Below, piece by piece: positions 5,110 to 62,706 of a stretch of 64,000 nucleotides of DNA. The position numbers and the translations under genes are program-made. The stretch is from positions 69,566,001 to 69,630,000 of the forward strand of contig CM059432.1 of assembly GCA_030390025.1 (NCBI GenBank). The letters are read 5' to 3'. Position 1 is the stretch's first letter; each line of letters starts with the position of its first letter. The stretch comes from Squalus acanthias (lineage: Eukaryota). A model generated the notes under the pieces. The model did no database searches. It was given only the letters and a program-made list of their open reading frames with translations, and had not been told where the DNA came from.

Positions 5110-5473
5110 GGCCTAGAACTTCGTAGCCGTTACGAAATCTGCCGGTGCCACCGCGGCCATGGGTTAACAGCTGCCGAAAATGGTGGTGTGGACAGAACTG
5201 AAAAATTGGCGCTGAGGACTAATGATTATTAGTCCAGCGCTAAACTCGCCGTATAATGCTCTCCTGGTGGCATTCGTCCCAGAATCAGGCCCCAATGTGG
5301 CATCCAGAAGCGGCACTGCAGCTTCGCACAGACTCTGAAAGCGAGGCTGTGATTTTGCAAAGCATTGTGGGATCTTAAAAGGGCAATGCATTGTCGTTTT
5401 CTTAAAAGGCCTTCTGAAATAACAAAAATAAAAATGATGTAAAAATATGCAGTTTTTTGCCCTTACAGCTTAA
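5110..5473 (+). mobile_element. Terminal fragment of a Harbinger-type element
   Basis: Starts GGCCTAGAACTT (cf. TIR at 49088); diverged homology to the reverse complement of 9400..9749. Confidence 0.55.
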
Positions 5474-5477
5474 GACA

Positions 5478-6485
5478 TGTATGTCCTTTCTTAGATAAGA
5501 AGACCAAAACTGTGCACAGTACTCCAGGTGTGGTCTCACCAAAACCCTGTACAATTTCAGTAAGACTTCCTTACTCTTGTACTCCAACCCTCTTTGAATA
5601 AAGGCCAACATGCATTTGCTTTCCTCATTGCTTGCTGTACCTGCATGCTAACTTTCTGTGTTCCCTGTACGAGGACACCTAAATCTCTCTGAACACCAAC
5701 ATTTAATAGTTTCTCGCCATTTAAAAAATATTCTGTTTTTCTATTCTTCCTACCAAAGTGAATAAACTCATATTTCCCCACATTATACTCCATCTGCCAC
5801 CTTATTGCCCACCTACTTAACCTGTCTATATCCCTTTGCAGAATTTTGTATATTCCTCACAGCTTACTTTTCCACCTTGCTTTGTATCGTCAGCAAACTT
5901 GGATACATTGCATTCGGTCCCTTCCTCTAAGTCATTAATATAAATTGTAAATACCTGAGGCCCAAGCACTGATCCTTGCGGCACCCCACTAGTTACAGCG
6001 TGCCAACTGGAAAATGACCCGTTTATCCCTACTCTCTGTTTTCTGTCCAATAGCCAATCCCCTATCCATGCTAATATGTTACCTCCAACCCCATGAGCCC
6101 TTATCTTGTGTAGCAACCTTTTATGTGGCACTTTATCAAATGTCTTTTGGAAATCCAAATATAGTACATCCACTGGTTCCCCTTTATCTACCCTGCTAGT
6201 TACATCTTTAAACTCTAATTTATTTGTTGAACACGATTTCCCTTTCATAAAACCATGTTGACTTTGCCTAATCATATTATGATTTTCCAAGTACCCAGTT
6301 ACCACTTCCTTCATAATGGATTCCAGCATTTTCCCGATGACTGATGTTAGGCTAACTGGCCTGTAGTTCCCTGTTTTCTCTCTCCCTCCTTTCTTGAATA
6401 GCGGTGTTACATTTGCTACCTTCCAATCCGCTGGGACCGTTCTAAAATCTAGAAATTTGGGAGATCACAGTCAATGCATCCATTA
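5478..6485 (-). mobile_element. CR1 LINE ORF2 (RT) fragment
   Basis: [49 protein letters not shown]; frameshifts. Confidence 0.92.
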
Positions 6486-7614: not shown

Positions 7615-9749
7615 AGGTTTGGGGGCTTTACGCCACCTGTTACTGGCAAAAAATGGTGGGTCCTGTGGCGTCCTCCATTTTTGATGTCCCCATAGCGCTG
7701 CTGATAAATAGTACCGCCCTGCAAAAAAAATGGTGGATTGGTAACGTCGCACACCGACTTAACGTCACCACACCCAACTTCGACCCTAGCGCTGAGTTCA
7801 GAGTTGGGTCATAACCACGCCAGAGAAATCCAGCGTGCAAATAGACTGACAGAGGCGCTGTCAGCACCTCTTAAAGGGACACGCACATCTTTCAGCTAAG
7901 TTTGCATTTAAGCTTTTGGACTGGGTTTTTTTGATTTTATTGAAGTAGTGGCTTGCTGCAATAGATGTTAAAAGTTTTTTAAGTGTGTAGGAAGTGCGGC
8001 TGGACTCTTGCAAAGCCTTGGATGGTAAAGGAAGGCCTCTTGAGTAGACAGAAAATGCTGGAAATACTGAACAAGTCAGGCAACATCTGTCTCCGGTCGA
8101 GATGCTGCCTGCCCTGCTGAGTATTTCCAGCATTTTACGCTGTCATTTCAGATTTACAGCATCCGCTCGCAGAGGGAAGAGGAAGACACAGAAGAGGAGT
8201 AAGCAGAAGAGGAGGAAGCAGATGGAAGAATGCATCCCAGACAGCCCCTTTGTGGCCGGGATATCCGGGATGGAATCATCTGCCTGCTGACCCAGTGACA
8301 ACAACCCCAATTCCCCTTCCAACATCAGTCCCACACCTTACCTTCCCTCTGTTACTGACCATCACAGTGTCCTCTTGGTCATGATGCTGAAATAAAAGCC
8401 ACCACAAAGCAGACTTTCCAATCCAACTTTATACATCTATCCATCCAATATGATAGCAAGAAATCAACTCATCACCTTTATGCATTCTCTTAGTGACTGT
8501 CTTGTTTGTGCCTTTGCCTATCCTACTGATCATGTTACGCAGCATGGCTGGTGGAAGGCTGCTGACTTTCAGTGGGGGACACTGCAAATGACCTTGCTGG
8601 TCGACCTTGAGGAGTTGGTGGCTGGGAGTGTCAAATCAATCTTCTTCTATCTTCTTCTTCCCCTTCTTCCTCCATCTTCCTCCTCCTCTTCCTCCTCCAT
8701 CTCCTCCTCCTCCTCCATCTCCATCTCTTGGGTGTGTGAAATGAGGAAGGCACAAGGGCAGAGTTGTGGTGAGGGGAGGGCGGGAAAGCCGGAGGATAAT
8801 GTATGAGGATACCAGCATCTTGTATCCTTTCAGCCCCGCTGTTGGCCAAGGGCTCAGCCAAAAATGACCTGCACTGTCTCCTCCAAGGGGGTGAGCTGAG
8901 GCTAGGAATGGGAAATGTGCCTCGTGATTGGTACAGATTGTTGGTAGGTGACTGATTGGGGACAGGGAGTCGTGCATTGAGGAGTGTGTGTGAGGCTAGT
9001 GATGCAGTTGGTAGGAGATGGCTTTTGAAGATGCATTCACTGACCTTGACCACTGGCCTGAGGCCATCAAGCTTCTTTGGGCACTGGAGCCAGATGGCGG
9101 GGGCGACATTGCTGGCAGTGACGGCCTCGGTGATGTGGTCCCACATCCTTCTTTCTGGAGGGCCTCCTGGCCCCTGTGGGTAGAGGACCTGCCTTGCAAG
9201 TGTTGGCCCCTTGCACAAAGCTGGAGTGCTGCGTGCGAGACCCTGGGTGCCCCTTCCCTGGCTTGCTGAGCCATTCGTGTTAGTGCTGAAGCACTTTTCC
9301 CATTTTTGAGCTTCGGAAGGAAATTCAGCTTTAAGTGCTGAAGAATCCCATCTGGGACTTCGTTTTAATGGTAGTTTTTTTATTGAAAGGCAGTAAAGGC
9401 AGTAAGGGCTGAAAGCTGCAATTTTCAATGCATTGTCATTTTTATTAGTTTTGAACGCATTGCCCCTTTAATTCATAACCCCTTTAATTGCCCACAATGC
9501 CTTGTAAACTCCACAGCCTCGCTCCCAGAGGCTGTAAGGAGCTGCAATGCCGACTGTGGACGGGAGCTTCGGGTCGGAGGCCTGCATTAATGCCTCCCAG
9601 AGTGCGTTGCTCCGTATGTTAGCGCTGTCCTACACATCAGCCCTAGGTGCGAATTTTTGCCCAGTAGCACTGTGGCCATTTTCAGCGGCCGTTAACTCGA
9701 GTTGCCGGTGACACCGACAATTCTCTTGGTGTACACGAATTTTTCCGCC
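7615..9749 (-). mobile_element. Non-autonomous Harbinger element with Myb/SANT gene relic (boundaries approximate)
   Basis: WDHITEAVTASNVAP.IWLQCPKKLDGL; colinear homology with 49088..52998; flanked by TAA on both sides, left TIR unclear. Confidence 0.7.
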
Positions 9750-10540: not shown

Positions 10541-10665
10541 ATGGAACTGAAGTGGTGCTCAACTCATGGCAGCTGGCACTTGGCATGAGGCTGCTGCTGG
10601 CCACACCTCTGCAGGAAATCTCCTGGGCAGCCTGGTCTCACCTGACAGATTTTAATAGCATGGTG

Positions 10666-12478
10666 CTATAGAAGCAGGAGTAGGCCATTCGGCCCTTCGA
10701 GCCTGCTCCGCCATTCAATATGATCATGGCTGATCCTCTATCTCAATACCATATTCCCGATCTCTCCCCATACCCCTTGATGCCTTTTGTGTCTAGAAAT
10801 CTATCTATCCTTCTTAAATATATTCAGTGACTTGGCCTCTACAGCCTTCTGTGGTAGAGAATTCCACAGGTTTAACACCCTCTGAGTGAAGAAATTTCTC
10901 CTCATCTCAGTCCTAAATGTCCTACCCCGTATCCTGAGACTGTGAACCCCTCGTTCTCAACCCCCCAGCCAGAGGAAACATCTCCCTGCATCCAGTCTGT
11001 CTAGCCCTGTCAGAATTTTATACGTTTCAATGAGATCCCCTCTCATTCTTCTAAACTCTAGTGAATACAGGCCTAGTCGACCCAATCTCTCCTCATACAA
11101 CAGTCCTGCCATCCCAGGAATCAGCCTGGTGAACCTTCGCTGCACTCCCTCTATGGCAAGTATATCCTTTCTTAGGTAAGCAGACCAAAACTGCACACAG
11201 TACTCCAGGTACGGTCTCGCCAAGGCCCTGTACAACTTTAGTGAGACATCCTTGCTCCTGTACTCAAATCCGCTTGCAATGAAGGCCAACATACTATTTG
11301 CCTTCCTAACTGTTTGCTGCACCTGCATGTTTGCTTTCAGTGACTGGTGTACAAGGACACTCAGGTCCCTTTGTACATCAGCATTTCCCAATCTATCACC
11401 ATTTAAATAATACTCTACCTCTCTGTTTTTCCAACCGAAGTGGATAACTTCACATTTATCCACGTTATACTGCGTCTGCCATGTATTTGCCCACTCACTC
11501 AACTTGTCTAAATCGCCTTGAAGCCTCTTTGCATCCTCCTCACAACTCACAATCCCACCTAGTTTTGTGTCGTCAGCAAACTTGGAAATGTTACATTTGG
11601 TTCCCTCATCCAAATCATTGATATATATTGTGAATAGCTGCGGCCCAAGCACTGATCCTGCGGTACCCCACTAGTCACCGCCTGCCACCCCAAAAAAGTC
11701 CCATTTATTCCTACTCTCTGTTTCCTGTCTGTTAACCAGTTTTCAATCCATGCCAGTATATTACCTCCAATCCCATGTGCTTTGATTTTGCACACTAACC
11801 TCTTATGTGGGACTTTATCAAAGGCCTTCTGAAAATCCAAATACACCACATCCACTGGTGCTCCCTTATCTATTCTACCAGTTACATCCTCAAAAAACTC
11901 CAGTAGGTTTGTCAAACACGATTTCCCTTTCATAAATCCATGTTGACTTTGTCTAATCCCGTTTATATTTTCTAAGTGTCCTGTTATCACATCCTTTATA
12001 ATAGACTCTAGCATTTTCCCTACTACTTATGTTAGGCTAACCGGTCTGTAGTTCCCAGTTGTCTCTCTCCCTCCTTTTTTAAATAGTGGTGTTTCATTTG
12101 CCACCCTCCAATCTGCAGGAACTGTTCCATAATCTATAGAATTTTGGAGGATGACAACCAATGCATCCACTATTTCCATGGCTACCTCTTTTAGTACTCT
12201 GGGATGCAGATTATCAGGCCCTGGGAATTTATCAGCTTTCAGTCCCATTAATTTCTCCAGCACTATTTTTTTACTAATACTAATTTCCTTTAATTCCGCC
12301 TTCTCAGTGGACCCTTGGTTCCTTAGCATTTCTGGGAAGCTATTTGTGTCCTCTTCCTTGAAGACAGAACCAAAGTATTTGTTTAATTGCTCTGCCATTT
12401 CTTTGTTCCCCATTATAAATTCTCCCATTTCTGACTGTAAGGGACCTACATTTGTCTTCACTAATCTTTTTCTTTTTC
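10666..12478 (-). mobile_element. CR1 LINE ORF2 3' portion
   Basis: [37 protein letters not shown] and the CR1 3' UTR. Confidence 0.93.
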
Positions 12479-15574: not shown

Positions 15575-16268
15575 GCTCCATATTTTCCGATCGGAGGCTT
15601 CCTGCTTGCGGAGGCCTCCTATCTGGAAAAAATCTACACCCTTACCTGAGGGCTCCGGAGGTCCGGACATTTCTGCTCCTGGGCCGCGCGCGCAGAGGCC
15701 CAGGTATCCCAGGGACGCATGCGGTTCGCAAGCATCCCTGGGATCACGTGGGCCAAGGGGAACCAATGAAAGAAGGGTTAGACCTGTCAAAAGTATGAAT
15801 GGGGATCGCTCAAAAAACACATCAAAACATTAAATAATTTTTTTTTTTAAATCACGTTTTTAAAATTAGTTAAAATTACATTAAATTAAATATTTTAAAC
15901 AAAAATGTAAGTTTTTTATGGGGCTAAAAATAAAAGTAACTTTTTTTTAAAGTATTTTTAAATTATAAATTAAAAAAAAAAACTTTTTAAAACTCTTATG
16001 CTGGTAAAAGCAGGCCTTATGCCTGCTTTTACCAGGCGTAAGATTTGCAAGGGTTTTCAGCGGGCAGAGGTTCCGCAGAAAGCGGAACTCTCCACCCGCA
16101 GAGGCCCTTCTCCAGGGCAGGCAGAGGATCTGTCAGGAGGGTTCTTGACAGATTGGAAGTGCCGATTTTCAGCGCATGCGCTTCACATGCCTGAAACCGG
16201 CACTTGCGAGGTCCCTACGGGTGTGTACACAGCTCGTACCCACCCATGGGGGTCGGAAAATACGGGCC
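15575..16268. mobile_element. Harbinger-type MITE family D, copy 1
   Basis: Imperfect TIR ..CCATATTTTCCGA / TCGGAAAATACGGGCC; TSD ATT; GC-rich arms with an AT-rich core; similar to 34239..34994. Confidence 0.8.
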
Positions 16269-16847
16269 ATTGTGGCATAGGCAAGTACATATTGAATGGT
16301 TATTTCCTCCTTGCTAGTGTTGAAGAATTATCTTTTATTGGCATTCAATTTCCTGTCATTTGCTTTATAGTGGGGGGAATGCATTAGGAAATATTTAATT
16401 AAAATTACTGGTTTTTTTTAGGTTCAATATTAAATTGAAGCTATTTAATTAATTTTATGGAGGATTGGAAAAATGTGTACCCTTGCTGGTCATAGCTGAG
16501 CAATATCTTTGTCTTTTTTATTCAGCTAGTTTGATTTTGTTTTGCGTGTGTGCGCGGTGATTGCCGCTGATTTATGTAGTGTTAGAGTTCTTGTACATTT
16601 GTACGTATAAACTAAAAGAGGGAGATTGTTATTCCTTGTGCTGATGTTATTTTTAATATATTAGATATAAAGTCAATTATATTTAGTGTAAAAAATGAAG
16701 GGAAGGTTCAAGTTTTTTCATGTATCATTCTTCAACCATTTCAGATTATCTTCTATGCTATTTTGTAAATTTTCCACTAACATGAAAAGGCGTGATTGTA
16801 CACTGCTGCACTTACAACCAGTCTTACAGCTTCCTTTTATTTCACAG

Positions 16848-26262: not shown

Positions 26263-27517
26263 ACATAGATACATAGATACATAGAAGATAGGAGCAGGAG
26301 TAGGCCATCCGGCCCTTCGAGCCTGCTCCGCCATTTAATGAGATCATGGCTGATCCTTCAATTCAGTATCCCGTCCCCGCCTTCTCTCCGTAACCCTTAA
26401 CCCCTTTTGCCTGTAGAAATATATCTAATTCCCTCTTAAATATATTTAATGAGCTGGCGTACACTGCCCTCTGTGGCAATGAGTTCCACAGGTTCACCAC
26501 TCTCTGAGTGAAGAAATTCCCCCTCATTTCTGTCCTAAATGGTTTAGCCCTTATCCTTAAATTATGTCCTCTAGTTCTGTTCTCACCCGCCAAGGGAAAC
26601 ATTCCTTCTGCATCTAATCTGTCTAGACCTGTCAGAATTTTATACACTTCTATGAGGTCCCCTCTCAATCTTCTAAACTCCAGTGTGTACATCCCTAAAC
26701 TACATAGTCTCTCCTCATAGGTCAATCCCGCCATTCCTGGTATCAGCCTGGTGAATCGCCGCTGCACCCCCTCCATGGCAAGAACATCTTTCCTCAGATG
26801 AGGCGACCAAAACTGTACACAGTACTCGAGGTGTGGTCTCACCAGTGCCCTGTACAGCTGCAGCAAGGTATCCCTGTTCCTGTATTCCAACCCTTTTGCT
26901 ATGAAGGCCAGCATACCGTTTGCCTTCTTGACCGCCTGTTGCACCTGCATGCTCGCCTTCAGTGACTGGTGTACAAGAACACCCAGGTCTCTCTGTACTT
27001 CCCCCTCTCCCAATTTATTGCCATTTAAATAATAATTTGCCCTCCCGTTCCTGCACCCAAGGTGGATAACTTCGCACTTGTCCACATTATAGTGCATCTG
27101 CCATTTATCCGCCCAATCACCCAGTCTGTCCAAATCGCTCTGGAGCTTCCTGGTCTCCTCCTCTGAGCCCACCCCCCCTCCTAGTTTAGTGTCGTCTGCA
27201 AATTTGGAAATGCTGCATTCGACTCCCTGATCCAGGTCATTAATATAAATTGTGAACAGCTGGGGACCCAGGACAGATCCCTGCGGTACCCCACTTGTTA
27301 CTGCCTGCCATTCAGAAACTGAGCCGTTTATTCCAACTCTCTGTTTTCTATCTGACAGCCAGTTCTCTATCCACGTCAATACTTTCCCCTTTATCCCATG
27401 AGCTTCAATTTTCCATGCTAATCTTTTATGTGGGACCTTATCGAAGGCCTTTTGGAAGTCCAGGTACACCACATCTACTGGCTCTCCCCCATCTATTTTA
27501 CCAGTTACTCCCTCAAA
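26263..27517 (-). mobile_element. Young 5'-truncated CR1 with intact 369-aa ORF2 C-terminus and (TATGTATC)n tail
   Basis: ORF 26363..27472 has no disablements; octamer tail reads acatagat-acatagat-acataga on +. Confidence 0.95.
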
Positions 27518-28163
27518 AAGACAGATGAGGATGTGAAATAAGGTGGGACTTAGAAACAGCAGGCTTCCGCCCCGAAGATCTAAGTCTGAGAATTCCTGCT
27601 AGGGGCAGGAACAGTGCGATGGAACTTACATTCACCTGATTAAAAACCTGATGTGTAAAAAGAAGGCAGAGCCGGCGGGATGTCATCATCCATGGATCCC
27701 TCACTGCTTCCATCTCCTCTGCCCTAAGTGTCCAGGCTACCGGCAATATACTGGCATTCAGTTCAGTGGCAGAAGTGGGTCCCACAGGGGATGTCTCAGC
27801 CAGGGTCGTAGGCCTGGAACACCCCAGAAGAATAAAATGGGCCTCTGATCTCATCAATTGTGGCAGTTAGAAAATCATGCTGCAACCTTATCACTTAGGC
27901 AGTTTTTCTGCACTCCATCCTGCTGCCCGGCACCCCCTCTCCCAGCTGATGGATAGGGTTCATTCTGGCACGGGTGTCCACCAGATTTATTAAAATTTCC
28001 TGACCCTACTTTGACCCTGGATATTCCAGCACAGTCAGGTTCTAAGTACACTGGTGGGGCATGATTGCCACTCTGCCATAGTTATGGTGGTGGAGTGGGG
28101 TCATGGGTATTTGGCCTCAAGCCTTTAATTACTGTGGGTAGGTAAACCTATCCAAACAGTATA

Positions 28164-34238: not shown

Positions 34239-34994
34239 TGCCCGTAATTTCCGATAGGAGGCTTCCTGCGTGCGGATGCCTCCTATCGGAAAAAAATCTA
34301 TGAACTTACCTGAGGGCTCCCGAGGTCCGGACACTTCCGCTCCTGGGCCTCTCCACAGTCGAAATGCGCAGGGCCCACGTATCCCAGGGGCGCATGCAGT
34401 TCGCAAGCATCCCTGGGATCACGTGGGCCAGGCCAGCCAATAGAAGAAGGGAATCTCCCTTCATACTTTTGACAGATAGACTTGTCAAATATATGAATGG
34501 AGATCACCTCAAAAACACAGTAAAACATTAAATAAATTGTTTTTTAAATCACGTTTTTAAAATGAGTTAAAATTACAATAAATTAAATATTTTAACCAAA
34601 AATTAAATTTTTTGAAAAAAATAATTAAAGTTTTTTACTGGGCTAAAAATAAACGTAACTTTTTTTAAAGTATTTGAAAATTATAAATGAGTGAAATTTT
34701 TTTAAAACTTTTTTTCAACTCTTATGCTGGTAAAAGCAGGCCTTACGCTTGCTTTTACCAGGCATCAGATTTCTAAGGGATTTCAGCGGGCAGAGGTTCT
34801 GCAGAAAGTGGAACACTCCACCCGCAGAGGCCCTTCTCTATAGCAGACGTCCAATCTGTCAAGAGCATTCTTGACAGATCGGAAATGCCGGTTTTCAGCG
34901 CATGCGCTTAGCATGCCTGAAACTGGCATTTCCGATGTCCCTACGGGTGTGTACACAGCCCGTACACGCCCGTAGGCATCAAAAAATACGGGCC
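34239..34994. mobile_element. Harbinger-type MITE family D, copy 2
   Basis: TGCCCGTAATTT / AAAATACGGGCC; TSD AAT. Confidence 0.82.
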
Positions 34995-35492
34995 AATACT
35001 TATAAACTTAATTCAAACTATGTAGTGCATCAGATTGGTACATTAAGGGTAATTTATCTACTTTGCGCATTCTTGAATTTGTGATATGTGCTGCCACGAG
35101 GCGAAGCTTCCTCCCAGCAGGGCAAAGTTAGAAAATTGCCCATGCTGTTCTTACTGCTGCAACCTAAGATTGAACCTAACTCTGACTGAGGGATGATTGT
35201 CATTGTCATTTGGCTGTAAGGGCACTATGTGATGGAGGTAACGCAGTTCCTCATGGGAACCTCACTCTGAAAGGCCACAAGGATCGTGGGTTTGGGATGT
35301 GAGAAAGAAGTGTTGCAAATGGTGCCATGGGAGTGATCTGTAATTGGGGCTAATTGTCGGGGCAGAGTAGATGGATCTTTACTCTGTATACTATATACTA
35401 GTCATGATGCGGAGATGCCGGTGTTGGACTGGGGTGGACAAAATTGAGAGGTCGCACAACACCAGGTTATAGTCCAACAGTTTTATTTGAAA

Positions 35493-35534
35493 TCACAAGC
35501 TTTCGGAGCTATCGATTGCTCCTTCCTCAGGTGA
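35493..35534 (-). ncRNA. Minimal hammerhead ribozyme, mirror copy
   Basis: Exact reverse complement of 37651..37692. Confidence 0.85.
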
Positions 35535-35866
35535 AGTAAATTAGATACAGAATCGCCAAAGCATATATAGATAGAAAACAAAGCATGTGTACTTTACAAT
35601 TGCAGACCAATAAATTAAATCATCCTGACTATCTGCCGAGGTGTGATAAAGTTAATTAAGTCAGCCAGGAAGGTACCACATCAAAGACATAGCAAGATAC
35701 AACTGAGACAATGAGGTGTAGTCGCAGGGGTTCTAACGTGTCAAAAGCTGCCGTCTGTATGTAAAACGAAAAGCTTTAACATTTTTTTACTTTTTTACTG
35801 GGAAAATTTTTACTTTTTTACTGGGAATCACATCTGTGAACAAGCTAACGACGACTCGAGTCCGGA

Positions 35867-36599
35867 TCACGTCATGTATCGTGACATAAACCCAAGATCC
35901 CGATTGAGACCGTCTTCATGAGTGCGGAACTTGGCTATCAGTTTCTGCTCGATGATTTTGCGTTGTCGTGTGTTTCTAAGGTTGCCTTGGAGAACGCTTA
36001 CCCGCAGATCCGAGGCTGAATGTCCTTGACTGCTGAAGTGTTCCCCGACTGGGAGGTAACAATCCTGCCTGGCGATTGTTGCGCGGTGCTCGTTCATACG
36101 TTGTCTCAGTGTCTGCATGGTCTCGCCGATGTACCATGCCGCGGTGCATTCTTTCCTGCAACGTATGAGGTAGACAACGTTGGCCGAGTCACATGAGTAT
36201 GTACCATGTACCTGGTGAGTAGTGTCCTCACGTGTGATGGTGGTATCTGTGTTGATGATCTGGCATGTCTTGCAGAGTTTGCCATGGCAGGGTTGTGTGG
36301 TGTCGTGGTCGCTGTTATCCTGAAAGCTGGGTAATTTGCTGCGAACGATGGTACTTCTGAGGTTAGGCGGCTGTTTGATGGCAAGTAGTGGAGGCGTGGG
36401 GATGGCCTTAGCGAGGTGTTTGTCGTCATCGATGACATGTTGAAGGCTGCGAAGAACATGGCGTAGTTTCTCCGCTCCGGGGAAGTACTGGACGACGTAG
36501 GGTACCCTGTTGGTTGTGTCCCGTGTTTGCCTTCTGAGGAGGTCTATGCGATTTTTCGCTGTGGCCCGTCGGAACTGTCGATCGATGAGTCGAGCGTCA
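35867..36599 (-). pseudogene. PLE polyprotein C-terminus: linker, Cys motif and GIY-YIG endonuclease (RT lost by 5' truncation)
   Basis: DARLIDRQFRRA...PCHGKLCKTC...NVVYLIRC..C...WYIGET..TLRQRMNEHR...E..LI..F.T...GLN; uninterrupted frame. Confidence 0.9.
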
Positions 36600-37318
36600 T
36601 CGATCGACAGTTCCGACGGGCCACAGCGAAAAATCGCATAGACCTCCTCAGAAGGCAAACACGGGACACAACCAACAGGGTACCCTACGTCGTCCAGTAC
36701 TTCCCCGGAGCGGAGAAACTACGCCATGTTCTTCGCAGCCTTCAACATGTCATCGATGACGACAAACACCTCGCTAAGGCCATCCCCACGCCTCCACTAC
36801 TTGCCTTCAAACAGCCGCCTAACCTCAGAAGTACCATCGTTCGCAGCAAATTACCCAGCTTTCAGGATAACAGCGACCACGACACCACACAACCCTGCCA
36901 TGGCAAACTCTGCAAGACATGCCAGATCATCAACACAGATACCACCATCACACGTGAGGACACTACCCACCAGGTACATGGTACATACTCATGTGACTCG
37001 GCCAACGTTGTCTACCTCATACGTTGCAGGAAAGAATGCACCGCGGCATGGTACATCGGCGAGACCATGCAGACACTGAGACAACGTATGAACGAGCACC
37101 GCGCAACAATCGCCAGGCAGGATTGTTACCTCCCAGTCGGGGAACACTTCAGCAGTCAAGGACATTCAGCCTCGGATCTGCGGGTAAGCGTTCTCCAAGG
37201 CAACCTTAGAAACACACGACAACGCAAAATCATCGAGCAGAAACTGATAGCCAAGTTCCGCACTCATGAAGACGGTCTCAATCGGGATCTTGGGTTTATG
37301 TCACGATACATGACGTGA
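36597..37318 (+). pseudogene. Mirror copy of the PLE GIY-YIG ORF fragment
   Basis: Same protein as the minus-arm copy apart from F/I at LLA(F/I)KQ. Confidence 0.9.
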
Positions 37319-37650
37319 TCCGGACTCGAGTCGTCGTTAGCTTGTTCACAGATGTGATTCCCAGTAAAAAAGTAAAAATTTTCCCAGTAAAAAAGTAAAA
37401 AAATGTTAAAGCTTTTCGTTTTACATACAGACGGCAGCTTTTGACACGTTAGAACCCCTGCGACTACACCTCATTGTCTCAGTTGTATCTTGCTATGTCT
37501 TTGATGTGGTACCTTCCTGGCTGACTTAATTAACTTTATCACACCTCGGCAGATAGTCAGGATGATTTAATTTATTGGTCTGCAATTGTAAAGTACACAT
37601 GCTTTGTTTTCTATCTATATATGCTTTGGCGATTCTGTATCTAATTTACT

Positions 37651-37692
37651 TCACCTGAGGAAGGAGCAATCGATAGCTCCGAAAGCTTGTGA
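37651..37692 (+). ncRNA. Minimal type I hammerhead ribozyme in the PLE pseudo-LTR
   Basis: TCAC-CTGAGGA-A-GGAGC(aatcgata)GCTCC-GAAA-GC-TT-GTGA: stem I, CUGANGA box, stem II, GAAA box, minimal palindromic stem III, UH site. Confidence 0.85.
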
Positions 37693-38123
37693 TTTCAAAT
37701 AAAACTGTTGGACTATAACCTGGTGTTGTGCGACCTCTCAATACTATATACTAACCATAGTTTGTATATTGCACTAAGCTGTGCACTGTAAATGCTCTTC
37801 CGTTTTTCTCATTTTCTTTTCATGCATTCTTTATTGCTTCCTCTTTTCTACTCACTTTTCTTCTCTTTTTATTCTTTTCTTCTCATTTTTACTTTCTTCA
37901 CTTTTCTTCTCATTTTCTTCAATCCTGAGTGTAATTGTTGAAAAGTTAAAGGGCCCAATTTAATCAGCCTAGACAGTTAGAACTGAATCCACAGGCAGCC
38001 GCTGGGCTCAAAGACACTACGTGACTCCTCTTAGCAATGAAATCTATTGACAGAAGTGCATTTTGATTCTTTTCTGATCGTTATGATTTGACTATATTAA
38101 CATAATTTCACTTTGTTTTTAAG

Positions 38124-38227: not shown

Positions 38228-39557
38228 GTAAGAAAATTCAAGACGTTTAGCCATATTGTATCAGTGATTAGTAAAGCAGAAGACAATAAATTGTAATCCA
38301 ATTTCACATGTTTTGGGAAGGTCATTTAGGGTAGGAAGGCAGAGAAAGCTGAAAGGTCGATAATGAAAGAAATTATCGACCTACGCTTGACTGATTTATT
38401 TGTGTTTTTCGGTCGCATTTTGCGTTGGAACCCCAGCTGTTTTGCAGGCAAAAGTTGTATAACTGTTCTGTCAGAATTCGAGTCAGAACCATTCCTACAG
38501 ACTCTGTAAATATGCAGCTGCCTAAATATTTGCATGTATTCATTAACAACTTGCATTTATATAGCAGCTTTAACATAGAATAACACCCAATGCACTTCAC
38601 ATAGACATAATCAGATGCTAAGCCAAAAAAGGAGATATTAGGAGGGAAGAGGTGGATTTTAATGAGGGTCTTAAAGGAGGAGAGGGACATGGAGAGGTAG
38701 ATGGGCTTAGGTAAGGAATTCCAGAGTGTGGGGCCTATGTAGATAAGAGTATGGTTACCTATGGTGGGACAAGATGGGCGGGGGAGGGGGTGACAAGAGG
38801 CCAGAGTCAGAGGAGTGGAATTTAGGGGCTTGCAGGGGTAGAGGAGGTTACAGAGATAAGTAGGGCAAGGCCATGAAGGAATTTAAACATGAGGATGAAA
38901 ATTTTAAATTGGAGGCATTGTATGTCAGGGTTGATAGGTGAGTAGGATGGTGTGGGATATGATATGGACAGCAGAGTTTTGGATGAGATGAAGTTTATGG
39001 GGGGTTGGGGGGGGGGGGGGGGAGAGTGTTGGAGAATGGGAGGCCAGCCATGAGTGCATTGAAATAGTTGAGTTTTGAGGTGATAAACGTGTAGATGAGG
39101 GTTTCTGCAGCAAATGGGCCGAGTTAGAGGCAGAGGTAGGCAATATGACAGAGGTGGAAGTATGCGGTCTTTGTGATGGAAAGGATATTTGGAAGCTCAG
39201 CTAAGGGGCAAATAGGATGCATAGGTTGTGAACAGTTTAATTCAACTTGAGACAGTGGCTGGGGAATGGATATGTTGCAATTAACAAGGGGATGGAGTTT
39301 GTGGCAGGAAACAAAGTTAATGACTTTGGTCTTCCTAGTGTTTAAATGGAGGAAAATATGGCTCATCCAAGACTGGATGTCTGACAGCACAGAAGCAATG
39401 GATGGGTCGGGAAAGGTGGTGGAGAGATAGAGCTAGGTGTCGTCAGTGTACATGTGGAAGCTGATCCAATATCTACAGATGATGTTGCTAAGGGGTATGT
39501 AGATGAAGAAGAGGTGGGGGCAAAGGATAGGTCCTTGGGGGGATTCCAGAGATAATG

Positions 39558-41712
39558 AGGGGGTGACTAGGTGTGTGGATGAGGGTAACGCAGTGGATGT
39601 GGTATACATGGATTTCAGTAAGGCCTTCGATAAAGTCCTGCACAGGAGACTGGTCAAGAAGGTAAGAGCCCATGGAATCCAGGGTGCCTTGGCACATTGG
39701 ATGCAAAACTGGCTCAGTGGCAGAAGGCAGAGGGTGATGGTCGAAGGTTGTTTTTGTGACTGGAAGCCTGTGGCCAGTGGGGTACCACAGGGATCGGTGC
39801 TGGGTCCCTTGCTGTTTGTGGTCTACATTAACGACTTGGATATGAATGCAAAAGGTATGATCAGTAAGTTCGCGGATGATACAAAAATTGGTAGGGTGGT
39901 AAATAGCGAGGAGGGTAGCCTCAGTCTACAGGACGATATAGATGGGTTAGTCAGATGGGCGGAACTGTGGCAAATGGAATTTAATCCGGAAAAGTGCGAG
40001 GTGATGCACTTTGGAGGGACTAACAAGGCAAGGGAATACACAATGAATGGTAAGACCCTAGGCAAGACGGAGGGTCAGAGGGATCTTGGTGTGCAAGTAC
40101 ACAGATCCCTGAAGGCGGCGGAACAGGTGGATAAGGTGGTAAAAAAGGCATATGGGATACTTGCATTCATTAGCCGAGGCATAGAATATAAGAGCAAGGA
40201 GGTTATGATGGAGCTGTATAAAACACTGGTTAGGCCACATCTGGAATACTGTGTGCAGTTCTGGTCGCCACACTACAGGAAGGATGTGATCGCTTTGGAG
40301 AGGGTGCAGAGGAGATTCACCAGAATGTTACCCGGGCTGGAGTGCTTCAGCTATGAAGAGAGACTGGGCAGATTGGGTTTGTTTTCCTTGGAGCAGAGGA
40401 GGCTGAGGGGGGACATGATTGAGGTGTACAAAATTATGAGGGGCATAGATAGGATGGATACTAAGGAGCTTTTTCCCTTAGTAGAGGGGTCTATAACAAG
40501 GGGGCATAGATTCAAGGTAAAGGGCGGGAGGTTTAGAAGGGATTTGAGAAAGAACTTTTTCACCCAGAGGGTGGTTGGAGTCTGGAACTCACTGCCTGAA
40601 TGGGTTGTGGAGGCAGGAACCCTCACAACATTCAAGAAGCATTTGGATGTGCACTTGAAATGCCATAGCATACAAGGCTACGGACCAAATGCTGGAATAT
40701 GGGATTAGATTAGACAGGGCTTGATGGCTGGTGCGGACACGATGGGCCGAAGGGCCTCTATCCGTGCTGTATAACTCTATGGGGGAAAAATTCAGTTGGT
40801 TGCGCCTCCCGTTAGCGCCTTAAGAGGGCACTAATGGGGCGCAAAGCATCTGGCGCCGGGGCGCAAAGCATCTGGCGCCCAGGTGCGACGAAGTTTGCGC
40901 CGCTCGCGAAATTAACTAGACATTTTGTGGCGGCGCTAAACACTACCGCCACGATCTCCTGCACCGGCAGATCGTGACGTCAGTCGAGTGCGCAACGCCC
41001 CGGTATCGCCCCGGAGCGGGTATTGAGTGGCGCCCCCTGCCTTACCGCCTGACGCTAGCAACGACAGGTTGAGGGGAGCGTTCTGCAGTCATGAAGGGAA
41101 AGGGGGAGCGCTATTTAAAGGTGACCGATTCCTGCCTTTTATTGTTGGTGCCATTTTTGAACTACGCATTCTGAGAGAGAGAGGGAGAGACTTCTGGAGA
41201 GATTCAACGTTGTGTGAAGGAGTTTTGGGTACTGAGCAGCACTTTGCAGGTTCATTTTGATTTGCCATTCCTTGTATCGATTTAGAAGAGACTCTGGGGG
41301 CTGCACTCTGAGCTCTTTGCCTGGTACTCTCCATTGTTCTTTCCAGCAGATTTGATGTGCAGGTCTCTCCAGGCCGAGATTCAAGGCTGCAATGAGCATG
41401 ATGTGGATGGAAAGCAAGATTAACCATCCCCTTTAAGAACTGGCCCGTGCCATTGTGTGTGTGTTCCATTGCTGACTGACATTACATGAGCTTCGCCAGT
41501 GCTCTGAGGTAGCGCCTCGCTCCTCGGCCTTTGCGCCTTAAGACAGGTGTGAAGCGCCTGATTTAGCGCTGCAATCACCTCCAGGGTTGATAAAAGTCAA
41601 GTTTGCAGTCGGTGGCGATAATTAGCGCCAGGCGCTAATCTTTGCGCCCGGCCGATAATTGCGCCCCAAATGGGGCGATACTGAATTTCTCCCCCTATGA
41701 CTCTATGACTCT
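39558..41712 (+). mobile_element. Young 5'-truncated CR1 (intact ORF2 C-terminus to 40708), tail interrupted by a MITE
   Basis: Uninterrupted RT frame; TSD ATAATG at 39552..39557 and 41713..41718; (ACTCTATG)n tail. Confidence 0.93.
40781..41695. mobile_element. Harbinger-type MITE family A, copy 2
   Basis: TIR GGGGGAAAAATTCAG / CTGAATTTCTCCCCC; TSD TAT; sits inside the (ACTCTATG)n tail of a CR1. Confidence 0.9.
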
Positions 41713-50793: not shown

Positions 50794-50940
50794 AAAATAC
50801 TGCAGATGCTGGAAATCTGAAATAAAAGCAGAAAATGCTGGAAATACTCAGCAGGTCAGGCAGCATCTCGAACTGAAACGTTAACTTGTTTCTCTCTCCA
50901 CAGATGCTGCCTGAGCTGCTGAGTATTTCCAGCATTTTCT
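50794..50940. repeat. Mini palindromic Penelope-type insertion
   Basis: Inverted arms cagaaaatgctggaaatactcagcag...ctgctgagtatttccagcattttctg; 14-bp direct repeat GTCTTCTCAGAGGC at 50780..50793 and 50941..50954. Confidence 0.7.
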
Positions 50941-51027
50941 GTCTTCTCAGAGGCCTTTCTTTACCATCCAAAGCCTTGCAAGCGTCCAGCAGCACTCCCT
51001 GCACATTTTAACAACTTTTTAAAGGTA

Positions 51028-54366: not shown

Positions 54367-55848
54367 GAGCTGGATTTTGCGTGCGAATAGTGCCAGTCGT
54401 TCATTGCACTTGCACTGGCCCAGACTTTATCAGATTTTGCAGTGGAACTTACTGTAATTAGAGAGCCAAAACACCATAGCGCCCTCTATAGGAGATCTGA
54501 GACATGTGTAAGCAGGGCAAGCAACTGTGTATTTCCTTAACCAATGATATTAAAAAATTATTAATGAGCAGTGCAGAGTTTGAATCAGGAAATGTCCGTT
54601 AAAAGATTTAATCCAATGCCAAATATGTACAGAAAGCAAATTAGAGAGGTAAAGAAAGATGGGATTAAGAAAGAGAGACAAAAGAGACAGAAAGAAGAAG
54701 TAAAACAATGGCCCAGAAATTCGGGTCGGAGGCTTCCCGCGGGTGCAAGCATAGCAGGTGCACTTACATAGCGCGCCTGCCGTTGTGCTGTGGGCCCGCG
54801 TGGGATTCCGATCCTGGGCCTCCTCCAGCTGCCGGTGTGCAGTGCTCGCGTATCCCAGCGGCGCAACTAGTTCGCACCGTCCCCTGGAATCACATGGTCC
54901 ATGGGGAGCCAATCGGAGCAGGGAATCTCCATTCATCGATTTGACTGGAAGACCTGTCAAATCTATGAATAGAGATCGGCCCCAAAACCTAAGTAAAACT
55001 TCAAATATTTTTTTTTAAATCACATTTTTAAAATAACTATAAATTACATAAATTAACTATTTTAAACAAAAATTAAATTTTTGAAAAAATGTATTAAAGT
55101 TTTTAATGGGGCTAAATAAACTTACCTTTCTTTAACGTATTTAAAAATGATAAACCTGTGGAAAAAATGTTTCAATTTTACTTAATTCACCTCTTACCTT
55201 GTTAAAAGCAGGCCTTGTGCCTGCTTTTTCCACGCGCAGCTGCTAGGGACTTACCCGCACGGAGAAACCTGTAAAAAAAAAAAAAGCGGAAGTTCGCTGC
55301 GTACGCGCTGCCTCTCCCACGCACGCGTTTGACCTGCGAACCCCTTCCTTCAAGAGACCGGAAGTTCCGGTTTCCCGTGCTTGCGCGAAACCGGCACTTC
55401 CGGTGGCCCTACGGGTGAGTACACAGCGCGTACTCACCCGTGGGGACCCGAATTTCTGGGCCAATATTTATTTTAATTTTAAAAATGTTTTTAAATCTCC
55501 AACAATAATTAAAATCTGAAGGAATGAGACACCACACTTGTAAAAGTTCATTTTCAGTGCCGGAGAGGTTATCATGCCTCTTTACTTACACTGGAATGGA
55601 CAAGCACTAACCTTTTCTGGCAAGTTTAGTGGGCAACTTCATACCGTTCTATATATTTCAATGCCGAGTCGCTCGGCGAGATACTGTTATAGCGAAGCTT
55701 CTGGAGGAGCAGGGCAACTTGGACAGTAATTTCCTGATTTCCGCGTTTAACTGCGCATGAGTGGTTGCCGGAAGTTGCTGTTGGATTTACTCTTTAATAA
55801 TGGTGAACGCTGTTAGCTCACCATTATTTCGAGAGCAAAATCCGGCCC
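54367..55848. mobile_element. Older Harbinger-type MITE hosting 54710..55462
   Basis: GAGCTGGATTTTGC / GCAAAATCCGGCCC; TSD AAT. Confidence 0.72.
54710..55462. mobile_element. Harbinger-type MITE related to family D
   Basis: Perfect 18-bp TIR GGCCCAGAAATTCGGGTC; TSD AAT. Confidence 0.88.
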
Positions 55849-59932: not shown

Positions 59933-60714
59933 AACATAAGAACATACGACGTAGGAGCAGGAGTAGGTCATTTGGCCCCTCGAGTAAGATCATGGCTGAT
60001 CTGATCTTGGCCTCAACTCCACTTCCCTGCCCGCTCCCCATAACCCTCGACTCCCTTATCGTTCAAAAATCTGTCTATCTCCACCTTAAATATATTCAAT
60101 GACCCAGCCTCCACAGCTCTCTGGGGAAGAGAATTCCAAAGATTCACGACCCTCTGAGAGAAGAAATTCCTCTTCATTTCCGATTTAAAAGGGTGCCCCC
60201 TTATTCTGAAATTATGCCCCCTAGTTCTAGATTCCCCCACGAGGGGAAACATCGGGCTGGATTTTGAATGACCCATGGAGTCGGGTTTGGAGGCGTGTGG
60301 GGGGTTAAATTTGCGGGGTCGGGGTTTCCGACCCCATCCCGACTCCATCCCGCCTCCACGCAATTTTGACAAATCAGTCGCGGGGTTCCCGACTCCGTCC
60401 CGCCTCCAAGAGGCGGGAGAGGCCATTAAAGCCCTTAACAAGCCCTAAATTGGCTCTGTAATGCCATTTTGAAACGTTGTAGCTAGTTTAACCCTTTTCT
60501 GACGTGAAGCACGCCTGATGTGAAACACTCCAGTGAAACCTGCCGGGAGCACAAATGGGTAGCTGACTATCGGCTGCAGGTCCACTATTACAACGGAGAT
60601 GTGATGAAGGTAGTAGTAGTATTAGGTGTGAAAGTCGCCTCTGATGCTGCTGCATTGAATGTCTTCAGAGACTGCATGGCAATTGGTGTGAGAGGACTTG
60701 GATGCAAAAAAAAA

Positions 60715-60801
<87 letters not shown>

Positions 60802-62706
60802 GCATCCAGGTCCACTCACATCAAAAGCAATCCAGGCAGGTCCTCTCTTACCAACAGCCAGACAATCTCTGCGAGCAGGCAGTCAGCAATGATGACATCA
60901 TCAGAGGCGACGTTCAGACTGAAACCACTAATTAGTTCATGGGTTCCCACATGCTGCAACTCAATTGCCCAATTAAGTGAAAATTGCATCATTCATCCAC
61001 ATTAATCTGGAGTCGGGGGGGGGAACACGAAATGCGGATGACACGACCCCAACCCGACCCCAAGACAAAATCCAGCCCATCCTCTCTGCATCTACCCTGT
61101 TAATCTCCTTCAGAATCTTATATGTTTCAATAAGATCCCCTCTCATTCTTCTAAACTCCAATGAGTATAGGCCCAACCTGCTCAACCTTTCTTCATAAGA
61201 CAACCCCATCAACCTCGTGAACCTTCTACTTGCCTCCAGTGCAAGTATATCCTTCCTTAAATAAGGAGACCAAAACTGTACACAGTACTCCAGGTGTGGT
61301 CTTACTAACGCCCTGTACAGTTGTAACAGGACTTCCCTACTTTTATACTCCATTCCCTTTGCAATAAAGGCCAACACTCCATTTGCCTTCATAATTACTT
61401 GCTGTACCTGCATGCTAACTTTTTGTGATTCATGTACAAGGACCCCCAGATCCCTCTGTACCTCAGCATTTTGTAATCTCTCCCCATTTAAATAATAATT
61501 TGCTTTTTTATTTTTCCTACCAAAGTGGATAACCTCGCATTTTCCCACATTAAACTCCATCTGCTAGATTTTTGCCCACTCACTTAGCCTATCTATATCC
61601 CTTTGGAGTTTCTTTGCGTCCTCCACACAATTTGCTTTCCCACCTATCTTTGTATCATCAGCAAATCTGGCTGCATTGCACTCAGTCCCTTCATCCAAGT
61701 CATTAATATAGATTGTAAATAGTTGAAGCCCCAGCACTGATCCCTGCGGCACCCCACTAGTTACAGTTTGCCAACTGGAAAATGACCTATTTATCCCGAC
61801 TCTCTGTTTTCTGTTAGTTAGCCAATCCTCTATCCATGCTAATATATTACCCCCAACCCCGTGAGCTCTTATTAGTAACCTTTTATGTGGCACCTTATAA
61901 AATGCCTTCTGGAATTCCAAATACACGACATCTACTAGTTCCCCTTTACCCACCTTGCTCATTACATCCTCCAGCAAATTTGTCAAACATGATTTCCCTT
62001 TCATAAAACCATGCTGACTCTGCTTGACTGTATTATGATTTTCTAAATGTCCTGCTATCACTTCCTTAATGATGGACTCCAGCATTTTCCCAATGACAGA
62101 TGTTAGGCTAACTGGTTGATAGTTGACTTCTTTCTGTCTCCCTCCTTTCTTAAATAGGGGTGTTACATTTGCGGTTTTCCAGTCCGCTGGGACCTCTCCA
62201 GAATCCAGGAATTTTGGTAGCTTACAACCAATGCATCCACTATCTCTGCAGCCACCTCTTTTAAGACTCTAGGATGCAGGCCATCGCGTCCAGGGGACTT
62301 GTCTACCTTTAGTCCCATTAGTTTGCCTAGTACTTTCTCTCTAGTGATAGTGATTGTTTTAAGTTCTTCCCCCCCCCCACCCTGATAGCCCCTTGATTAT
62401 CCATTATTGAGATACATTTAGTGTCTTCTACCATGAAGACCGATACAAAATATTTGTTCAAAGTCTCCGCCATTTCCCTGTTTCCCATTATTAATTGCCC
62501 AGACTCATCCTCTAGGAGACCAACGTTTACTTTAGCTACTCTCTTCCTTTTTATATACCTGTAGAAGCTCTTACTGTCTGTGTTTATATTTCTTGCTAGC
62601 TTACTCTCATAAGCTATCTTCTCTCTCTTTATCATTTTTTTTAGTCGTCCTTTGCTGGTTTTTAAAAATTTCCCAATCCTCTGGCCTTTTACTATTCTTC
62701 GCAACA
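59933..62706 (-). mobile_element. CR1 LINE ORF2 3' 1.9 kb (plus nested MITE)
   Basis: [43 protein letters not shown], 3' UTR. Confidence 0.92.
60254..61078. mobile_element. Harbinger-type MITE family E inside a CR1
   Basis: TIR GGGCTGGATTTTG / CAAAATCCAGCCC; TSD ATC; removing it restores the CR1 frame ERM|FPL. Confidence 0.92.

Follow-up and report, generated by a model that had tools for sequence, protein, structure and literature searches.

The closest described systems are the canonical endonuclease-bearing units of Penelope-like elements (PLEs), represented by Penelope/Poseidon, Neptune, and Naiad and by Pen2a of Adineta vaga (available text of PMC3846280 and PMC8557442). Self-priming with an antisense template was inferred in 2013 from palindromic PLE junctions, according to the accessible parts of PMC3846280, and the formation of the second strand and of inverted copies is stated to be unresolved in those of PMC11167929 and PMC8557442. 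In another system, "snap-back" is a named class of 5′ junction among the insertions made by avian R2 proteins (PRINT), as described in the available portions of PMC11371274 and PMC11331408. In the literature that we searched, no paper was found in which PLE apices are traced to template-encoded microhomology or the snap-back of PLE cDNA is put to a test, and such work may be in print. A search by terms of the accessible text of the retrozyme paper 10.64898/2026.07.22.740005 returned nothing on inverted copies, and a literature search on polymerase theta self-priming gave nothing.

The window, which is the whole stretch of 64,000 nucleotides (nt) of Squalus acanthias DNA that was analyzed, contains a single PLE insertion at positions 35401 to 37742 in the form of a 2.3-kb palindrome. 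Its two head-to-head, 5′-truncated arms of 1146 nt each enclose an 8-nt loop and differ from each other at only 2 of the 1146 positions, which are 36379/36806 and 36218/36967 when walking outward from the loop. The innermost four pairs of the arms are formed by ATGA (36585-36588) with TCAT (36597-36600). An initial annotation of this DNA had described the palindrome, its 8-nt loop, and the ATGA/TCAT closure, and all three were found as it claimed. The palindrome is far beyond chance, and the next-best inverted repeat in the window (within 200 nt) covers only 72 nt at 71%. Taken alone, the ATGA/TCAT closure is simply the inner end of the palindrome, and establishing its encoding by the template needed outside data. 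The features of the insertion are as follows.

35388..35400, no strand: left copy of the target-site duplication, 13 nt, identical to the 13-mer at 37741-37753
35401..35442, minus strand: tail on one side only, being the element's extreme 3′ end, which the right copy lacks
35443..36588, minus strand: left arm, comprising the 3′ portion of the PLE (ORF end and pseudo-LTR)
35497..35530, minus strand: putative minimal hammerhead ribozyme motif in the pseudo-LTR of the left arm, by pattern match
35867..36598, minus strand: C-terminal 243 codons and stop of the RT/GIY-YIG ORF, read through the loop (DARLID...)
36585..36588, plus strand: ATGA, belonging to the family sequence, presumed side of the 4-bp stem on which the cDNA end landed
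36589..36596, minus strand: 8-nt loop, with the family sequence of the minus-strand copy
36597..36600, plus strand: TCAT microhomology, with which the template-derived sequence of the left copy ends and the right arm begins
36597..37742, plus strand: right arm, inverted and tail-less, ending at the mirror of 35443-35445
37655..37688, plus strand: putative hammerhead motif of the right arm
37741..37753, no strand: second (right) target-site duplicate, which has its initial AT (2 nt) in common with the arm end

The duplicated 13-mer occurs twice in the window, both times at the ends of the PLE insertion, and the target duplication is 11 to 13 nt long, depending on the 2-nt AT overlap with the right arm end. 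The tail is 42 nt long, or 44 nt if the shared AT is assigned to the duplication, compared with 30 to 40 nt described for PLEs in the available text. The duplication together with the one-sided tail indicates one insertion. The CpG observed/expected ratio is 1.0 in the arm ORF versus 0.43 for positions 1 to 35000, which is in line with a young insertion. The layout of the insertion is already known and is standard for PLEs, and the window copy is a further example. As far as the canonical unit is described in the accessible text, the window copy resembles it in the inverted, 5′-truncated copy placed head to head, the palindrome at the junction, the one-sided tail, the short duplication, and the hammerhead in the pseudo-LTR; unlike that unit, it has both copies truncated at the same point inside the ORF and not at the pseudo-LTR.

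The end of the ORF is 88% identical to a predicted Heptranchias protein over residues 402 to 643, and other close matches come from Mustelus, Scyliorhinus, and Chiloscyllium; these matches mark the host as a cartilaginous fish. Its GIY-YIG match (PF01541; E = 4e-4) reaches 21 bits, just below the Pfam cutoff of 22.6, and a WYIGET motif is aligned in its homologs. The RT is absent from the truncated window copy, and RVT_1 was found in all three of the longer relatives that were scanned, one of which is 88% identical over the common part. The hammerhead core motif with stems I and II is present in both arms (pattern and predicted fold), and these pseudo-LTR motifs are putative ribozymes; the pattern has 3 matches in the window versus 1.07 expected, which makes it weak alone, and an Rfam search gave no hammerhead match at E values up to 10. 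The combination of an RT with a C-terminal GIY-YIG domain, a hammerhead, a one-sided tail, an inverted truncated copy, and a short duplication is what the available text of PMC3846280 and PMC8557442 describes for endonuclease-bearing PLEs, and on its sequence features and its longer relatives, the inserted element is taken as one. No second PLE copy was detected in the 64,000-nt window by blastn or tblastn. A 21-nt pseudo-LTR pattern had 0 matches in viral contigs and 0 in metagenome contigs, and a protein-based scan for PLE copies found none among 29 candidates from prokaryote genomes or 25 from viral contigs; of the 144 from metagenomes, one was retained, a 1068-nt contig. Pieces of the PLE endonuclease region are carried by the shark gene models P0011, P0013, P0014, P0018, P0020, and P0024, labeled cytochrome P450, septin, XRCC5, and others, and these are probably misannotated or exonized fragments.

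Other repeats are present in the window. Three copies of an AT-rich repeat, 71 to 78% alike and with internal inverted repeats, lie at 34400-35003, 15725-16269, and 54882-55471; the first of these lies to the left of the insertion, ending about 400 nt away from it, and does not extend over the target site. A related pair of short hairpin repeats with 37- to 40-nt arms and a MITE-like shape is located at 50829-50941 and 8052-8136. A decayed long repeat family, probably a LINE, has four copies with ORF remnants on the minus strand (5471-6458, 10650-12143, 26270-27519, and 59933-62214). In addition, a 401-codon open frame on the plus strand (39503-40708) lies in a strongly G-skewed region and is weakly similar to inverted copies of the long repeat.

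At the apex of the palindrome, the minus strand reads D-A-R-L-I-D through the loop and the plus strand reads E-S-S-V-I-D; the annotation had given DARLID and SSVID, and the translations bear out both. It had also proposed that a family consensus would read GYDARLID or similar. A total of 144 homologs were aligned (24 from a first search and 120 of the 182 from a second), 85 of which span the apex. Among the 60 spanning homologs that are at least 60% identical to P0003, the apex columns have G in 51, Y in 53, D in 32, A in 49, Q in 36 or R in 16, L in 53, I in 52, and D in 44, and one protein among the closest matches, P0033, has exactly GYDARLID. The plus-arm reading ESSV was found in none of the 85 apex-spanning homologs. 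The homologs thus agree with a GYDARLID-like reading, and the loop is the family sequence of the minus-strand copy. P0015, the sole one of the 144 proteins that matches both arm strands, was considered as a read-through of the apex and was rejected; its appearance is that of a spliced gene model, and it provides no junction.

Logan contigs from four public runs were compared with positions 35200 to 36640, a stretch that ends before the right junction. Among the matches listed, 21 X2 contigs keep to the plus strand across the loop and TCAT and turn into a loose end directly behind 36600. These loose ends, from an X2 listing of 24 rows with 1242 further ones, have a median length of 16 letters and an agreement of 0.79. 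They start with A where the window has C, and translated from the opposite strand, their first 20 letters give ALVRTG, a continuation (ALVRTG-Y) that matches the homolog P0003 (ALVRTGYDARLVD). The Tyr codon in the family is TAT, and in the sense strand, ATGA combines the end of the Tyr codon with that of the Asp codon. Because the family contigs leave the window exactly after 36600, the ATGA/TCAT stem pre-exists in the template, as the annotation had supposed, and the joint has a 4-nt microhomology with no filler. On this comparison of sequences, the loop and its stem are template encoded and filler is absent from the joint. Relatives reading GYGARLID would have a shorter stem, and the stem may not be constant in the family, of whose 80 variant rows 40 are listed.

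The same contigs place the other end of the left copy. Many have loose ends before 35400-35404 (52 and 63 in X5, and 6 and 19 in X12, perhaps an RNA run, among the matches listed), indicating that the tip of the tail is the usual 3′ end of the family. In line with the annotation's claim that the minus-strand copy is the primary one, the loop has the family sequence of this copy, and this copy bears the tail end common to many family copies. One 472-nt X2 contig (depth, 8.7) spans the left flank and the tail (35200-35423), which does not count as independent support since X2 may be the sample behind the window assembly; the X5 left-flank contig listed ends at 35338, and no contig spanning the window apex appears among the matches listed. 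Both arm differences are private to the left arm, and the family sides with the right arm in more than 99.8% of the X2 depth; as changes or errors peculiar to that arm, they say nothing about the mechanism. In the family, 80 variable places were found, 40 of which are listed, and the arms differ at only 2 positions, which indicates one template or source for both arms; no private variant common to both arms occurs among the 40 of 80 rows listed.

The short stem at the apex is infrequent among the points at which the cDNA might have stopped. On the plus strand of the left arm, a terminal stem of at least 4 bp is available with a loop of at most 8 nt at 28 of 1081 stop points (2.6%) and with a loop of at most 30 nt at 113 of 1081, and random pairs of stop and landing sites within 30 nt give at least 4 pairs in 0.3% of cases. 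It is very likely that microhomology guided the joint. The 4-bp apex hairpin is predicted to have a free energy of about +0.1 kcal/mol and a pairing probability of at most 1%, and a competing neighboring hairpin is predicted at -5.2 kcal/mol. The apex may also sit in the loop of a larger, imperfect template hairpin (36540-36600), a weak hint that comes from modeled pairing: for the 20 bases that follow the apex in the family, pairing to 36540-36584 is matched or surpassed at only 4.3% (DNA) or 2.7% (RNA) of 1110 positions with the same geometry, in a post hoc test of a pairing first spotted by eye. A microRNA at the apex was rejected as a candidate, since the Rfam matches are below gathering scores and reflect the perfect hairpin.

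We consider, with moderate confidence, that a snap-back of the first cDNA is the best reading of the apex. One insertion unit, a template-derived end point, a 4-nt stem, and a left tail are seen directly. In the proposed sequence of events, the GIY-YIG endonuclease would cut an AT-rich site with a stagger of 11 to 13 nt, as suggested by the length of the duplication, and the 3′ end of the left flank would prime the RT at the tip of the tail, so that the plus strand from 35401 to about 36600 would be the first-strand cDNA (the junction is present in one contig). Synthesis would then halt between the thumb and endonuclease regions, within or just past TCAT, an end point that is taken from the family sequence. 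The 3′ end of the cDNA would pair with the ATGA located 8 nt back and extend on itself to form the right arm, and for a stem this weak, the end would need to be held by an enzyme, either the RT of the element or a host repair polymerase. Finally, the 3′ end of the right flank may have been joined at the tail boundary through the 2-nt AT overlap and the remaining strand filled in, and the outcome would be a dead 2.3-kb palindrome without an RT. The best argument for an intramolecular fold is that the stops of the two arms lie no more than 12 nt apart and that the arms have one sequence in common in a variable family; a single folding strand accounts for these stops with no need for coincidence.

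Several observations weigh against snap-back. The hairpin is marginal and has the -5.2-kcal/mol competitor, and there is a single junction, whose 4-nt microhomology would equally be left by the end joining of two strands. The end of the right arm at the tail boundary is not explained by snap-back itself, and in Poseidon of Anolis carolinensis (PAc), this boundary is an RT start site, according to the accessible text of PMC11167929. In addition, the five inverted joints found in contigs among the matches listed (15 of 16 joints) are offset by 70, 121, 228, 514, and 971 nt and are not short loops. Each of these is present in one contig with 25 to 44 letters on the short side, and three of the five lie 3 to 9 nt from a GATC; four other X5 joints lie at one GATC site (0 to 1 nt). 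The nearby GATC sites suggest that the contig joints are possible ligation chimeras with no survey value.

The alternative that survives best is twin target-primed RT, which we regard as rather unlikely. Both nicked target strands would prime cDNAs, the left one at the tip of the tail and the right one at an internal, tail-less site, and the 3′ ends with TCAT and ATGA would anneal and prime each other; one or two element RNAs might serve, no hairpin would be involved, and neither arm would be a "second strand." PAc cuts and extends both target strands and is modeled as a dimer, with two start sites that delimit the tail (available text of PMC11167929), and the right arm of the window copy does end at the tail boundary with a 2-nt target overlap. 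The tail-less end (35443-35445; mirror, 37740-37742) also falls in the apical loop of a predicted stem-loop that is not significant against shuffles. It recalls the internal start site of PAc, which lies in a stem-loop, as far as the accessible description goes. Against twin priming, two cDNAs from the same source (the arms are 99.8% identical in a variable family) would each have to run for 1.2 kb and then end no more than 12 nt apart, which requires something that halts both, for example a broken RNA end or a strong pause. The final sequence would be identical to the snap-back product. The annotation had called the apex a direct footprint of hairpin priming, a claim that is not sustained, because two target-primed cDNAs joined by the same 4 nt look identical and the stem alone is unstable; from its proposal of snap-back priming, the template-encoded 4-nt microhomology and the lack of filler hold, and the intramolecular joint does not follow from the sequence, which twin cDNAs would also give.

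It is improbable that the hairpin was formed before integration, either by an antisense RNA self-primed at its 3′ end or by a palindromic copy transcribed whole and reinserted. This route was proposed for head-to-head PLE junctions (accessible text of PMC3846280) and would give the same results at the apex; against it, PAc uses sense RNA by target priming in vitro (PMC11167929, in its available text), and there is no sign of other copies with the same apex, in a depth over 36601-36640 that mirror mapping confounds. Duplication of an already inserted, truncated copy by a later genomic fold-back or a template switch in replication is highly improbable; microhomology-primed fold-backs are described at yeast DNA breaks and at breaks made by L1 (available parts of PMC11724301 and 10.1101/2024.12.14.628481). 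Against such an event here, no second copy of flanking DNA is present, the mirror image ends within the element, at the tail boundary, and a single target duplication encloses the whole unit. An assembly or long-read fold-back artifact is scarcely credible: near-perfect palindromes are a known artifact class, no listed contig is shown across the apex, and the right junction lies outside the compared stretch, but the loop is family sequence and not an adapter, the unique flanks differ and carry the 13-nt duplication, the tail is at one end only, the arms differ at 2 sites, and a read chimera would mirror the flank too.

For head-to-head PLE insertions in general, we tentatively offer a reading that may well not hold throughout, in which the first target-primed cDNA would stall at small template-encoded hairpins, fold back, and copy itself, and the second target end would be captured at the tail boundary. 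If true in general, this would replace the idea of antisense-RNA self-priming and supply the missing second-strand step of PLEs, and it would be readable from the many young copies of the shark family. With the layout already described for many animals, a single junction contributes little by itself. Copies of the family are young and very numerous, so that surveying loop lengths and microhomologies across one shark assembly could discriminate snap-back from twin priming.

As a clean, base-resolved case, the window copy fits cDNA snap-back; comparison with the family sequence fixes its junction to the base, a resolution not given in the accessible text of PMC3846280 and PMC8557442. Like PAc (PMC11167929, available text), the element has an RT, as seen in its longer relatives, and a GIY-YIG domain at its C terminus, together with a hammerhead, a tail, and an AT-rich target. 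The accessible PAc work leaves second-strand synthesis and inverted copies unexplained, and its two-strand priming underlies the rival twin-priming explanation. The apex is also like the fold-backs at yeast HO breaks and L1-induced breaks, in which a 3′ end self-anneals on an inverted microhomology of 2 to 10 nt and is extended (PMC11724301 and 10.1101/2024.12.14.628481, in their available parts); those fold-backs duplicate flanking genomic DNA through host polymerases, whereas the window copy duplicates element sequence only. As in R2 snap-back, the 3′ end of the cDNA appears to prime on the cDNA itself before the 5′ junction forms. In the accessible descriptions, R2 snap-back is a minor class of junction, seen in human cells with an engineered, site-specific non-LTR system, whereas the window holds a natural PLE, and unlike in R2, the second arm runs nearly the whole way back and ends at a fixed landmark.
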